64,000 nt of DNA from contig OX597824.1 in assembly GCA_951406725.2 (NCBI GenBank), forward strand, positions 69,316,001 through 69,380,000, given 5' to 3'. Below are positions 1,417 to 63,961 of the stretch, in pieces; within the stretch, counting starts at the first letter, position 1; each line of letters begins with the position of its first letter. Position numbers and translations under genes: made by a program. The notes under the pieces are model-generated. The model saw only the letters and a list, made by a program, of their open reading frames with translations, made no database searches and was not told where the DNA came from. This DNA comes from Octopus vulgaris (lineage: Eukaryota).

Positions 1417-1578
1417 CAATTGCAGCGTGGAAGGTGTTTATAAGCCATTTAAGAAACACACAAATACCTTTAGATTCATTTTGACATTTAAATTTGCCAA
1501 AATATTTTCATCACTTTGAGACCGCGACTTGTTCACTGAGAAAATTCCGTGCTGCATCTGAGACAGTAACAGTTAGTT
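1417..1578 (-). mobile_element. Short PLE-pLTR-like element with G3:C8 hammerhead variant (copy 1)
   Basis: Homologous to 3488-3700 (+) and 30524-30746 (-); minus strand reads GTGAACA-A-GTCGC..GTGAT-GAAA-ATATTT. Confidence 0.6.
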
Positions 1579-1791
1579 AATGATTCATGTACAAGTGTAT
1601 GTATGTATGTATGTATGTATGTATGTATGTATGTATGTATGTATATACGTATGTATACATGTAAATGTGTGTGTGTACATGTATGTGCGTATGCATATGT
1701 GTACATGCGTATGCATGTGTGCATGCCTCTACGCATGTATGTATGTATGTATGTATGTATGTATGTATGTATGTATGTATGTATGTATGTA

Positions 1792-3032
1792 TCAGGTCAT
1801 CAAATACGTTCCGTCCGAATTTTGTGTAAAGAAAACAAGTGATCAAATGTTATATTTAATTGAAATTTAATCGTCAATGTACTTTCCCTGATTATCTAAG
1901 ACTTTCTTTAATCTATTTACAAGTTTTTTTTAATCCCATCAATGTAAAACTCTTTTTGGTTTCAAAGCGAAGAACTCTGAAATGTCAGTTTCGACTTCCT
2001 CCTAGCTTGCGAAAGTAATGTTCCCCAAATGATTCTGTAAACTACGAAACAAATGGTAGTCTGAAGGAACAAGGTCGGGAGAATAAGGTAGGTGAGGAAT
2101 TTTTTCCCAACCAAGCTCTTCGATCATCTCTGATGTGATATTTGCAGTGTGGTGTCACGCATTGCCCTGATGAAACATCACTCCTTTTCGATTCAATAAA
2201 GCGGGTCTTTTTTCCTTCAAAGCTTGGTTCAAATTGCTGACAGTAGACTTGAGTATTGATTGTTGCATTAGGTGATAACAATTCAAAGTGAATTACTCTT
2301 TTGCAATCCCACCAGATAGAGGGAAGAACCTTTTCGGTTGTGGTTGAGTTTTTTTCCCTTTTTCCAAGCCACTGTTTACGACGTTTAACATTCCGATAGA
2401 GGATCCATTTTTCGTCACCAGTCACAAGTCTATCGAAAAAGGGTGAAATGATTTCGCGATAATGGAGAGAAGAGCAGATGTCAACTCAGGATTTGCGGTT
2501 GCTTTCGGACAATTCCTGAGGCACCCATTTTCCAAGTTTAGGAACCTTTCCAAGTTGTTAAAGATGGCGATGAACAGTTGTATGGTTTATTGCCAATTCT
2601 TCAACTGATAATGCAGGATTTTCTTCAAGGAGCTTATCATCAAACTCAACTGGACGTCCTGTTCGATCTTCATCTTCAAGGCTGAAATCTCCACTTCTGA
2701 ATTTTGCAAACCATCTCCTGCAAGTTCTTTCATTCAAGCATTCGTTCCCATAAACTGAGTGTATCTTTCGAGTCGCTTCGGCTACAGAGTTTCCTTTTTT
2801 GTACTCATAAAGCATTATATGCCTCAAATGTTCTTTGGATACTTCCATCTTAGAAAGGGTTTTAATCAAAGAAATTTTATATCTATTATTCTGTAAAATA
2901 ACATTGTATTAGTTTAATTGTACACAAATGCCTTAAAATAATTTTTAATTCCATTAGACATTCTAAAATACTATTAAATTTCATTCAATTTTAAAAAAGG
3001 TATAATTGGACAGAACTTATGGGATGAGCTGA
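1792..3032 (-). mobile_element. Full-length mariner DNA transposon with frameshifted transposase
   Basis: Imperfect ~28-bp TIRs (TCAGGTCATCAAATACGTTCCGTCC / TCAGCTCATCCCATAAGTTCTGTCC) flanked by TA; ORFs 2558-2869 (HTH: RHIMLYEY..CRRWFAKFRSGDFSLED..GRP) and 2042-2425 (TGDEKWILY..IWWDCKRVIHFELL); ~1.24 kb. Confidence 0.93.
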
Positions 3033-3487
3033 TACTTATGTATGTACGTGAGTATTTTAGGTAAGTGTGTAGACGTGTCGGTGTGTGTGTACATGTGTAT
3101 GTACATTTGAACGTGTGTTTATTTACTGATATGTGTTTGTTCAAGTTGTATAAATGACTGTTACTATGTTGAAGATTGTATACACACACACACATACACA
3201 ACACACACACACACATATATATATATATATATATATATATATATATATGTGTGTGTGTGTGTGTGTGTGTGTGTGTGCGCGTGCGTTTGTCCCTCTCACC
3301 ACCGTCTAACGGTGAATGAATACAACGTTTTAGAGACATATATGCAAATATAACCTTATACATATGTACAAGCACACATAATCATATAGACATTTATACA
3401 CAGAAATATACGTATAATCTTAAAGTATACACACATATATGCCGCTTATCTATCTATACACATATATAGGACACTATTTTCGCGGAT

Positions 3488-60145: not shown

Positions 60146-61567
60146 CCCTTCTAGGGGTAATCGGTATTTACCATAAGTTCACCACGTCTAAAGCAAACCG
60201 CTAATTTACTTGAATATGCCAATATATGTGGGGGAGGAGGCGCATGTGTGTGTATATATGCGTGTGTGAATATGTATGTATGTTTGTATTTATGTTTGTA
60301 TGTACATATGTATATACATTGTGCGTCCATATGTGTGTGTATATATGTGTGTATGTGTGTGTGTGTCTTGTTTTGCGGCTTGTGTGTTAATTCATGTATG
60401 TAATTGTTAATGTGTGTAGACCAATCATCTATAACAAAGTAATTGTCCAGTTAAAATTCTATTGTGAAAATCTCGGATCAAAGGAAGAAACACACGCACG
60501 CGCACACATACACACACGTATACACTCACTCACATGCATACACTTATCCAAACACATAAACATACATGTATTTATGCATGTATAGAAGCACCATTATTTC
60601 ATGCTTACATACACACAAGTATATACGCATACATTTCCTCGCACATAATTATAAACACGTATGCCCTAGATGGTATATATATAAATATATATATACCATC
60701 TAGAGCATACGTGTTTATATTTATATATATATATATATATGTGTGTTTTCATGTATGTATGAATGTGTATGTATGTATATATATGTATGTATATATATGT
60801 ATGTATATATATATATATATATATATATGTTATGTATACACTAGCCGCACGTGTGTATATATATATACACGTATAGATATACATTAAGACATAATTATAC
60901 ATGCTGAGACATATATATACATCTACACACATGTAGGCATTCATACATGTACTCAGAAATCTTGTATACACACCATCCATTCATTCCAAAAATATTACAT
61001 ACACCCTTATACACACAAACACATACATGTTCACGCACACACAGACACACACACACACACACACACACACACAAATATATATATATATATATATATATAT
61101 ATATATGTACGCACACATAGACGCATGCACATATACACACAAGACGACGCACAAAAGCGAACTGAATGAAAAAAGGGAGCTACTTCACTCAGTGGCTACA
61201 AATAGATATCGTAACAATGGATTGGTGTTGCGGAAGTTCTCAGTCGAACTTCCGGTTCTTTCCAATGACAACAGGCCAATTATATCTTGAACGGTAGTTT
61301 CAGGATGGAAAAAGACAAATTTATATGAATAAGAGTTGGTGGTATGCATGGTTGGTTCGGATGGATGGACGGGAGGGCTGGTTATTGTTAGTGGTGTGAA
61401 GTTGGTGGCGTGAAGAATCTTTTGTCTCCATGTTTCTGTCTTTCTACGGCAGCTGGAGAAGCTTGTGAGTGATCACACTACTGAAAAAAGGACAACGAAA
61501 GGTTCATCCGTTCGATTCCTGCATGTAACTCTTAACTCTTAGTGCAACCTTCAAACTTCAGTTAAAA

Positions 61568-61980
61568 TAGGAGTGGCTGCGTAGTAAGTAGCTTGGTTAC
61601 GAACCATATGGTTCTGGGTTCAGTCCCACTGCGTGGCACCTTCGGAAACTGTCTTCTACTATAGCCTCGGGTCGACCAAAGCCTTGTGAGTGGATTTGGT
61701 AGACGGAAACTGAAAGACGCCCGTTGTAATATGTATATATGTATATACATATATGTATGTGTGTGTGTATATGTGTTTGTGGGTCTGTGCTTGACCCCCA
61801 ACATTACTTGACAACCGATGTTGGTGTGTTTACGTCCCCGTAGTTTAGCAGTTCGGCAAAAAGAGACCGGTAGAATAAGTACTAGGCTCACAAAGATTAA
61901 GTCCTGGGGTCGATTTGCTCGACTAAAAGCGGTGCTCCATCAGGGCCGCAGTCAAATGACTGAAACAAGTAAAAGAGTAC
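61568..61980 (+). mobile_element. SINE family A (full length)
   Basis: Colinear with 19575-19983. Confidence 0.9.
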
Positions 61981-63655
61981 ATAAATATGTATATATATAT
62001 TTACACACACACACACACACACACACACACACACACACATATATATATATATATATATATATATATATATATATATATATCTGTGTGTATGTGTGTATGA
62101 ATGCGCGTGTGTGTGTATAATCGTCACTCGCAAACCGAATTTCAGTGAATTGAAAGCACTATGCTTTCACTAATTCTTTCAGATGCCCTTATATTCTACA
62201 GCAGTGGTCGACCCACTCTCAACTATGACACTCTTCAACCAGCGTAGAATAGCCAGCAGTAGAGAAGATTGAGCCAGCAATAGGATCATATCTTATCTAG
62301 TGACCTCCACTCAGTAGGAAAAGGCAAATTGAAGACATGCGGTATTTCATCACACGAAGAAGAGAACAGAAATTTAAAAATAAAAAACCGCAAAACCTTC
62401 TGTGTGACATCCTTCTGACTCAGTCAATTGACCGCCTTCGTTTAAGTGGGTATATTTATGTGTGTGTGTGTGTGTGTGTGTGTTAGGCATTTATCTTTTA
62501 CTTGTTTCAGTCATTAGACTGCGGCCATGCTGGCAGGCGCGCGTGCGTGCAACACACGCACAGACATATATAAGATACATGTATGTATTTATGTATGTAT
62601 GTATATATATATATATATATATATATATATATATATATATATATACATATATATATATATATGTGTATGTATGTATATGCATAGACATGCTTACTTGCAT
62701 ATATATTTGTGTGTATATTATGGTATATATAAATGTGGTATACACATCAACGCGCACAAACACACACACACACACATACACTCACATCCACACACATACA
62801 CACACGCACACACATAGAGAGAGACATATATTCCTATATACATACATACATACATTCATGAATACAGATCCTGACAATACTGGTGCCAATTATCAACGCC
62901 CCTCACCAAATCCACCGCAAAGACAACTACCACTACCACCACTACCCCTACCATCACCAACGCTAATACCACCACCACCACCACTACACTACTACTACTA
63001 CTACTACTACTACTACTACTACTACTACTACTACTACTACCATCATCCTAATTCACATTTCCGCCTTCCTATACCCTTTAATGACTCATTAATAAGAACA
63101 ATCTCCTTAATTTGTCATGTCACCATCGGATGCCATTGTACAGAGAGAGAGAGACTACCTTCTAAATATATCGAATTTCTTACAACTCCTCTATCATTTA
63201 TCATAATGTTCCTGACCTTGTCTGAGAATAGATCCGTAGACAGGCTGATATATCTTTATATATATATATATGTACACACTTCTCCCCTCCTTTTACTCTC
63301 TTTATGTATCTATCCATCAATCTATACGTTTGTTCGTAAGCGTGTCTGTGTGTGTTTGTATATATATATATGTGTGTGTGTATGTGTGTGTGTGTGTATT
63401 ACTTCATTAGTTACATACAGTGAAGAGCACGTGGGAGTACCACCACTGTAGTTTTCGTTTGACTGTTTATTTCTTTGCTTTAATTTTCATGCCGAAGTGG
63501 CAGTCTTCAGACGGAATTGCAACAAACGAGGATTTGAGAATCTCAAATTCCTTTTGAAAAACTTAAACCTTTTGGCATGAAACCGCAAGTAACGGAAAAC
63601 TAGTAAATATAATATATTACATTGCAGCAAATTTACCATATATATATATATATAT

Positions 63656-63961
63656 CCCCAGGAAACATTGTCTCCAGATGGCTATACGACACACTATTTG
63701 CGTCCATATATTTTTGAACGAGGGATTTTAGCGTCCCCACTCAGCCCAGAGCAATATCTGTGTACCAATGGTTTCAGGCTTATTTCCCTTCATCAGCACA
63801 AAATAACTACTCGGCTAGAGCAGTTGTGTGCTGATGAAGTGAAATAACCCAGAAATCATTGATAATGCTGATCTGGGTTGGGACAATAAACTACCTTGTT
63901 CGAAAATATAACGACACAGATAGTGTGTCATATAACCAGCCGGAGACGATGTTTCCTGGGG
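63656..63961. mobile_element. Older PLE-type inverted-repeat element at (TA)n with a hammerhead in each arm (63759-63800 on -, 63826-63868 on +)
   Basis: Minus: TGTG-CTGATGA-AGG-GAAATAAG-CCT-GAAA-CCATTGG-TA-CACA. Plus: GTG-CTGATGA-..-GAAA-TCATTGA-TA. ~145-bp diverged arms. Confidence 0.8.

Follow-up and report, generated by a model that had tools for sequence, protein, structure and literature searches.

Hammerhead ribozyme motifs in a 64-kb window of the Octopus vulgaris genome as probable ends of many Penelope-like element families

Introduction

Families of minimal hammerhead ribozymes (HHRs) derived from truncated Penelope-like elements (PLEs) have been known since 2014 (Cervera and de la Pena 2014, PMC4209133), and a PLE origin has been proposed for metazoan non-LTR (non-long terminal repeat) retrozymes (PMC7229834; bioRxiv 10.64898/2026.07.22.740005). 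The role of the hammerhead in PLEs is debated: in published studies its cutting is weak, and in vitro it proved unnecessary. A 2026 octopus annotation (PMC13282606) describes 31 recently active Penelope-like families, with hammerheads unmentioned in the portions of it considered here. Here, we analyse a stretch of 64,000 nucleotides (nt) from Octopus vulgaris (assembly GCA_951406725.2, contig OX597824.1, positions 69,316,001 to 69,380,000 of the forward strand), hereafter called the window. A first-pass annotation, made from the letters alone, had reported about eight unrelated families of short, hammerhead-bearing retroelements in it. We conclude, with a probability of roughly 0.85, that these motifs are the ends of many PLE families, five of them being truncated ends of coding elements and two (F and H) being non-coding units. 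PLE-type minimal hammerheads, a multitude of sequence-unrelated families and a PLE-like insertion layout, all proposed at first pass, were recovered.

Families are lettered by the positions of their window copies, in thousands of nucleotides: A (1.4, 3.5 and 30.5), B (12.1 and 13.7), C (18.1, 38.3 and 53.2) with its subfamily C2 (27.8), D (38.5), E (39.1), F (49.1), G (52.2) and H (63.7). P denotes the coding PLE at 24–26.6. For each family, the 30 best loci were fetched (fetched loci carry L numbers), and window copies were placed by projection on the family majorities.

Hammerhead motifs in the window and the genome

Motifs were sought with a relaxed type-I HHR descriptor that combines a Watson–Crick 3:8 pair, a helix I of at least 4 bp, a near-palindromic helix III and NUH. 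The window yields 10 matches, against a mean of 0.33 (maximum 2) in 30 global dinucleotide shuffles, 0.37 (maximum 2) in 30 local 200-nt shuffles and none in the reversed window. The strict N3UGANN8A form yields four matches, against 0.1–0.2 in shuffles. Nine of the 10 relaxed matches lie in repeat families, while the remaining one, at 22172, is probably a chance match. A genome sample of 80 evenly spaced 10-kb stretches of chromosomes C1–C8 (800 kb) gave 52 matches, seven of which come from one tandem array; three local shuffles of the sample gave 4, 8 and 4, and its reversed sequence gave 7. The predicted excess over shuffled sequence is borne out, and the ribozyme-shaped motifs of the window are real and above chance. 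A reading of them as accidents of AT-rich, repeat-rich DNA can point to the 4–8 matches per 800 kb of shuffled sequence, about one eighth of the relaxed matches, of which 22172 is an example. This reading is refuted by the roughly 30-fold (window) and 9-fold (sample) enrichment and by reversed-pattern controls that returned no match, and its probability is practically nil.

The density of matches in the window is about 2.4 times that in the sample. Scaling to the assembly (2.8 Gb, 227 contigs) gives some 1.4–1.6 × 10^5 motifs genome-wide, a rough figure of the order of 10^5. Such counts are lower bounds, since three families escape the descriptor: D through a bulge in helix I, E through its long loop II and F through a mismatch in helix II. 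Over the loci fetched, 199 distinct matches fall into 12 clusters of at least two members and 31 singletons, some of the latter arising by chance. An Rfam scan of the window (E up to 10) gave 616 matches, of which the best 150 were microsatellite-driven and contained no hammerhead. By projection, the window holds about 25 intact or decayed HHR motifs, a little above the 20 or so first proposed, and copies lie at every position named at that time. Eleven look intact, comprising nine descriptor matches and two F copies identical to the family majority. D is present in three copies, and E, F, G, H and P in two each.

Protein-coding parents

Upstream of the HHR-bearing ends of P, G, A, B, C and D lies an open reading frame (ORF) for a reverse transcriptase (RT) with a GIY-YIG endonuclease at its C terminus. 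The clearest case is P, of which at least 150 copies share a 100% identical C-terminal 209 aa. At one locus (L288), a full 717-aa ORF stands between two pseudo-long terminal repeats (pLTRs), with the RWK, DKT, CxCx5C linker, CxxC and CxH motifs that mark the Hydra clade. In the window, P occupies 24140–26583 on both strands, with an inverted arm (24140–25062) and a forward copy that carries a 5′-truncated RT and endonuclease ORF (25060–26289). Its HHR cores lie at 24233 (−) and 26490 (+) and have C at position 4. G is a second Hydra-type family, with a pLTR–723-aa ORF–pLTR arrangement in L290; in 7 of its 30 loci, an endonuclease on the same strand ends about 1,050 nt upstream. Its zinc-finger linker is intact in L281 and changed in L290. 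The window copy (52233–52524, both strands) consists of an inverted and a forward pLTR, both with intact HHRs (52304 on the minus and 52385 on the plus strand). A third young Hydra-like PLE of about 906 aa, with a long low-complexity insert, was seen at six loci (L285, L373–L377); it has its own HHR-bearing end repeat, which the descriptor missed.

Family A has an RT and GIY-YIG ORF with a CX3CxxC linker about 1.1 kb upstream (L274, L275, L277, L278; Pfam GIY-YIG E 9e-5), joined to the HHR end by a microsatellite-rich untranslated region (UTR) of about 1.1 kb. Its intact window copy, a predicted 3′ end of a Neptune-like PLE, lies at 30541–30775 (−) with a G3:C8 core at 30705; decayed copies lie at 1415–1610 (−, core 1536) and 3487–3683 (+, core 3526). 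In C, the endonuclease ends about 600 nt upstream in three independent loci (L278/L372, L249, L315), and the parent has a CX4CxxC linker and an RVT_1 match (E 4e-9). The intact C copy at 53125–53317 (−, core CUGUAGA at 53249) extends upstream into the parent's 3′ UTR, a further copy lies at 18157–18268 (+, core CUGUCGA at 18162) and the copy at 38272–38438 (+) has lost its core. Two decayed copies had escaped notice at first pass, one of C at 13956–14070 (+) and one C-like at 12391–12494 (+). C2 lies at 27809–27941 (−), with core CCGACGA at 27901 and G-C as first pair of helix I, where C has C-G. Upstream of D, decayed Neptune-like endonuclease pieces occur in 4 of 30 loci. Its window insertion (38449–39062, both strands), apparently an old Neptune-like PLE 3′ end, has an inverted copy and two direct copies 187 nt apart, with helix II damaged in all.

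A CX2-5CxxC linker precedes the endonuclease in the parents of A, C and D (L274, L278, L099, L113), which by this mark we class as Neptune-like (Neptune/Nematis type, the two clades taken together). The B parent (L390–L394) instead has the DKG motif and no zinc-finger linker, the marks of Penelope/Poseidon elements. All 12 B loci picked by their ORF end continue into the B end, 11 of them with the tRNA-like cassette treated below; in L390, a 569-aa RT–endonuclease frame is followed by the cassette and then the HHR. All parent copies of B that were examined (ORF in L378–L394) are damaged. Judged from their sequences, A, B, C, D and G are 5′-truncated ends of protein-coding PLEs of Neptune-like, Poseidon-like and Hydra types, so that a PLE ORF, as sought upstream of every family, was found for five of the eight.

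Non-coding units and further hammerhead elements

Nine mapped loci of F match only one 490-nt, circularly permuted unit, whose longest frame has 47 codons. Its arms stop at either of two recurring 3′ ends, which are separated by 93 nt, and as a 30-mer from F has just 37 exact matches, the family appears small and young. In the window (49119–49828, both strands), two opposed arms of this closed non-coding unit sit inside (TA)n, with cores at 49305 (−) and 49540 (+). H forms direct copies with a period of 299–362 nt in 9 of 30 loci; its window insertion (63649–64000, both strands) has an inverted copy with an intact HHR (63796) and a forward copy with helix III deleted, in a unit of about 355 nt. 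Both families look like non-coding, head-to-tail retrozyme-like units with one HHR per unit, and they likely borrow PLE enzymes. In the E majority, the core is canonical and loop II measures 50 nt, while both window copies, one inverted and one forward (39121–39560, both strands), have lost or mutated cores.

The first-pass annotation took all eight families for non-autonomous, non-coding retrozymes moved by PLEs. Most copies are indeed short and non-coding, and F and H, as closed non-coding units, fit this description. Moreover, 12 of 20 C copies start near one place directly after (TA)n, and one locus outside the window holds an array of 359-nt units. However, A, B, C, D and G each lead, at a consistent distance, into a PLE ORF, and A and G have 5′ ends scattered across 1.4 kb, which refutes the proposal for these five families and makes it very improbable for the set as a whole.

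Several candidate parents were rejected. F was considered as the end of the 906-aa Hydra-like ORF, but another end repeat follows that ORF in all five loci taken at its end, and F is inserted at an upstream TA site. Other protein matches near F proved to be pieces of LINEs (long interspersed nuclear elements) or a G element, and Hydra-type ORF pieces near E (L139, L140) lie on the wrong side and strand.

Beyond the lettered families, the array mentioned above (L293, G000:C1:20002300-20004600) comprises 359-nt units, five of them direct and two opposed, and every one has an intact canonical hammerhead; the array resembles a classical retrozyme array, and its family is absent from the window. 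At least two further hammerhead families have a U3:A8 pair (L354, L368, L304, L324). A remnant of another HHR element, new to this analysis, is split over two opposed arms at 63480–63600, and a search for further copies of it found none. Contigs of four sequencing runs, presumed to be RNA, covered B in all four and F in two; they show neither cut sites nor circles.

Ribozyme core and helices

The core CUGANGA is present in B, D, E, F, G and H. The form N3UGANN8A first ascribed to all families holds for most of them and fails in two: C reads CUGUNGA, with U at position 6, and P has C at position 4. In addition, A carries a G3:C8 pair, and the F majority has an A·C mismatch at the base of helix II. 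The U6 core of C is the rule genome-wide, with 24,077 matches against 392 with A6 and none for reversed-pattern controls. Among the first 100 matches listed, position 7 was read by eye as about 27 A, 18 C, 15 G and 40 T. Between C subfamilies, whose flanks are 55–68% alike, the HHR block is fixed except at positions 7 and 17; C2 has A6, and its first helix I pair is swapped. Most families have C-G as their 3:8 pair; A has G-C (46 of 50 copies; 2,372 exact matches genome-wide), and at least two others have U-A.

Within families, the covariation predicted at first pass did not materialise. Homology-selected copies of six families show 104 one-sided changes, 133 broken pairs and 2,181 unchanged cells, together with a single two-sided change, or 1 in about 1,950 cells. 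Paired swaps are seen only between families and subfamilies. As covariation within families is essentially nil, inserted copies appear to decay without selection, and the patterns between subfamilies suggest that selection on the fold acts only on a few source elements. Helix III, whose near-palindromy is partly required by the descriptor, has no computed monomer fold in any of nine cases. Its computed self-duplex ranges from −6.7 to −11.1 kcal/mol in E, F, G, H and P, and from −1.7 to 0 in A, B, C and D. Without a helix III in the monomer but with a self-complementary duplex, cutting would need two same-strand copies or two RNAs.

It may be that the ribozymes are dead or nearly so, and that the block is kept as a protein-binding or priming structure rather than for cutting. 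The most abundant family has U6, in 24,077 of its matches against 392. HHR mutants of the anole PLE insert normally in vitro and no reads end at the cut site (PMC11167929), and Naiad PLEs thrive without canonical HHRs (PMC8557442). This sits poorly with variation that is confined to the catalytically free positions 7 and 17, and with a 3:8 pair that swaps yet stays paired. We consider such a loss of cutting unlikely, although well short of negligible. Since published dimers are weak and insertion in vitro does not require cleavage, the motif may serve a purpose other than cutting. The octopus families provide a natural experiment here, as unrelated families keep the fold while swapping the 3:8 pair, and the hugely successful C has changed a normally fixed catalytic position while varying only at free ones. 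The activity of the U6 and G3:C8 cores would tell whether cutting or shape is selected.

Insertion layout and proposed mechanism

The insertions were first described as an inverted copy, a forward copy and a 60–100-nt tail, mostly flanked by (TA)n. Tandem or inverted pLTR layouts with an optional tail are indeed found, with differences between families. (TA)5 follows the 3′ end in 27 of 30 loci for A and for G, 26 for C and 17 for F, so that the association stands for these four; it drops to 8 for D, 4 for E, 3 for H and 1 for B. An opposed copy lies within 1.5 kb upstream in 24 of 30 loci for F, 18 for B and 15 for D, followed by H (13), E (12) and G (10), while A (6) and C (0) depart from the described pattern. 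Between the predicted cut and the 3′ end lies anything from about 40 nt (the coding PLE) to about 240 nt (F), a range wider on both sides than the proposed tail. B, which is without the zinc-finger linker, is also without (TA)n bias; this joint loss fits the link between the two proposed in PMC8557442.

These layouts could arise as follows. The element's endonuclease would nick the target, within (TA)n in the case of the Hydra-type and Neptune-like families, and at this nick the element's RT would copy a transcript longer than one unit, starting 40–240 nt downstream of the ribozyme. Copying would usually stop early and often fold back, resulting in short forward-plus-inverted copies. All short copies would hold a ribozyme because the ribozyme adjoins the point where copying begins. 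After insertion, every copy decays neutrally, as the changes within families show, while the fold would be selected only on source elements. The opposed arms of one insertion could not partner each other within one transcript. In B, the cassette may, at about even odds, start short transcripts that are copied in trans. Target-primed copying, dimer-dependent cutting and the use of PLE enzymes by F and H are extrapolated here from the PLE biology described in PMC4209133, PMC8557442 and PMC11167929.

A number of points weigh against the assignment of the motifs to PLE ends, or against ribozymes that cut. The clade names rest on motifs rather than on a tree with reference sequences. For E, neither a coding parent nor a tandem unit was found among the fetched loci. 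No PLE ORF was found upstream of F in the mapped loci. A coding parent may yet exist for H, as decayed Hydra-type ORF pieces adjoin it in 2 of 30 loci. Covariation within families is practically absent. Furthermore, U6 in C, C4 in P and the A·C mismatch in F are expected to slow cleavage, by analogy with the low activity of A6C and U4C hammerheads (PMC3088659). Cleavage activity is reported to be low even for dimers (PMC4209133), and PLE insertion in vitro needs no cleavage (PMC11167929).

A tRNA-derived cassette in family B

In the window, B occurs as a decayed HHR and tail without a tRNA-like cassette upstream (12049–12213, +), and as an insertion at 13165–13788 on both strands, apparently the end repeat of a Poseidon-like PLE. 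The latter has an inverted arm with a tRNA-like cassette (to 13449) and a forward partial cassette, followed by (TAA)n (13495–13640), the HHR core (13698) and the tail. The cassette is 73 nt long and lies about 30 nt after the stop codon of the parent ORF; its A and B boxes lie at positions 8 and 53. It is collinear with an Rfam-confirmed tRNA gene in L354 (52.7 bits), and the alignment scores 39 against 22.6 ± 3.8 in shuffles, a score reached by 2 of 2,000 shuffles. The aligned tRNA gene in L354 has a CTT anticodon. In 38 of 41 cassette matches, the B tail follows. From the letters, we conclude that the cassette inside the B end repeat is derived from a tRNA.

The short copies of B could represent a SINE-like (short interspersed nuclear element) form that RNA polymerase III (Pol III) makes from the cassette in the PLE's own end repeat. 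The A and B boxes and the collinear tRNA match speak for this. Exact 25–28-mer counts fall from 6,954 for the B HHR and 2,521 for the cassette start to 724 at a point 38 nt before that start, and then to 582 another 130 nt upstream, with none in controls. About 70% of cassette-bearing copies start at the cassette, and among loci chosen independently of upstream sequence, 22 of 36 start within −15 to +10 of it. On the other hand, the parent has a short hairpin exactly at the cassette start, and family A shows a similar fold-back hotspot without a cassette, about 10 nt upstream of helix I (13 close opposed pairs by eye among the first 100 matches listed). Runs of four T are absent from the B end and the 2,402-nt parent majority, where 2.2 are expected, a difference that is not significant (p ~0.11). 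Rfam (E up to 10) gave no tRNA match for one B copy, and ARAGORN at -ps80 did not call the cassette as a tRNA. We consider a Pol III form of B equally likely to be right or wrong. At the A hotspot, for example at G000:C1:1101613-1101680, many opposed pairs are only about 20 nt apart.

Three other proposals for B were dropped. Pol III read-through of the parent had been suggested by the missing T runs, which are not significant. B as a free-standing SINE fell when the upstream ORF was found beyond loose ends and in L304; the head of B sits inside the 3′ end of a coding PLE, so B is not a separate element as tRNA-derived SINEs are. A stretch of about 580 nt inside (TAA)n at seven B loci turned out to be an independent (TAA)n-targeting repeat, mostly found without B. 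This non-coding repeat, which lies between (TAA)n runs, is abundant (L029 and many other loci) and often nested in B. A tight pattern aimed at the source tRNA gene of the cassette found only three rearranged B copies. In the 800-kb sample, two other tRNA-like heads with A and B boxes are unrelated to B and probably belong to ordinary SINEs. Octopus SINEs were reportedly described in a 1994 paper, which may bear on the novelty of the cassette.

An ATG about 30 nt upstream of the B hammerhead opens a frame through ribozyme and tail, both in the window (13600–13790) and in the B majority. By analogy with the anole PLE (PMC11167929), this is probably the start of the parent's ORF.

A bolder overall claim can be formulated, in which this genome holds the largest known natural hammerhead library (of the order of 10^5 motifs in dozens of families), working U6 and G3:C8 cores are selected in tens of thousands of copies, and a PLE-captured tRNA gene serves as an internal Pol III promoter that spawns a SINE-like form, with the whole element possibly read by Pol III. 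Taken together, we regard this as tentative and rather doubtful. If true, a tRNA-derived promoter in a PLE end repeat would show how a SINE-like form can arise from an autonomous element that is not a LINE.

Other repeats in the window

Stretches 9509–11100 and 17310–17735 hold what we take to be RTE-like LINE reading-frame fragments beside (TTA)n runs. Stretches 2042–2485 and 18290–19150 presumably contain what is left of a mariner-like transposase and another stretch, resembling a DNA transposon, that has short terminal inverted repeats. Stretches 47749–48104 and 57520–59859 contain a 184-nt tandem and a group of short copies from one unrelated, common repeat.

Comparison with known systems

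The observation is mostly explained by a known class, and what makes it of interest is its scale, together with two variants of the core, the cassette derived from a tRNA and F as a closed unit. A literature search at the level of titles and abstract starts returned no octopus hammerhead report, no tRNA-headed or Pol III PLE, and no A6U or G3-C8 core; a paper on PLE dimer cleavage may describe such cores. G3:C8 and U6 cores are likewise absent from the portions of PMC4209133 examined, and one of its supplement files has no octopus entry. Within these bounds, C's U6 with variation only at positions 7 and 17, A's natural G3:C8 and B's tRNA-derived cassette were not found in print.

As described in PMC4209133, PLE hammerheads form many consensus families per genome, mostly as single motifs from truncated PLEs, with some opposed pairs 100–700 bp apart, an extra base between 9 and 10.1, a palindromic helix III and covariation of the 3:8 pair (U3-A8). 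The octopus motifs share these features, but their estimated number is of the order of 10^5, compared with the ~2,000–9,000 per genome given there. P and G resemble the Hydra clade as characterised by Craig et al. 2021 (PMC8557442), with a single ORF of ~720 aa, the RWK, DKT, CxCx5C, CxxC and CxH motifs, a canonical HHR and (TA)n insertion. That clade is described with few families outside cnidarians, whereas here it is young and abundant, as the at least 150 identical C-terminal copies of P illustrate. The parents of A, C and D share the CX2-5CxxC linker of Neptune/Nematis-type PLEs. The B parent resembles Penelope/Poseidon PLEs, including the anole PAc (PMC11167929), in its DKG motif, absent linker and lack of (TA)n targeting. 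In both B and PAc, the HHR is crossed by an open frame that begins within the end repeat; passages of PMC11167929 describe no tRNA-derived cassette for PAc.

F and H resemble metazoan non-LTR retrozymes (PMC7229834; bioRxiv 10.64898/2026.07.22.740005), which are non-coding and head-to-tail with one type-I HHR per unit. At 490 nt, F exceeds the 170–400 nt of published retrozymes, and it differs in having few copies, in forming short arms that stand opposed within (TA)n and in ending at two fixed 3′ positions. Its two 3′ ends, 93 nt apart, recall the two priming sites of the anole PLE (PMC11167929), and F ties a retrozyme-like unit directly to PLE-type insertion. B is similar to Schistosoma Sm-alpha (reviewed in PMC6765202), in which a Pol III-type promoter is joined to a hammerhead, the B arrangement being read from sequence, and to the Helenus and Ajax LTR elements (PMC10886601), in which a terminal repeat contains sequence derived from a small RNA. 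Sm-alpha is non-coding and occurs in tandem, and Helenus and Ajax are non-autonomous LTR elements, whereas the B cassette sits in the end repeat of a coding PLE.

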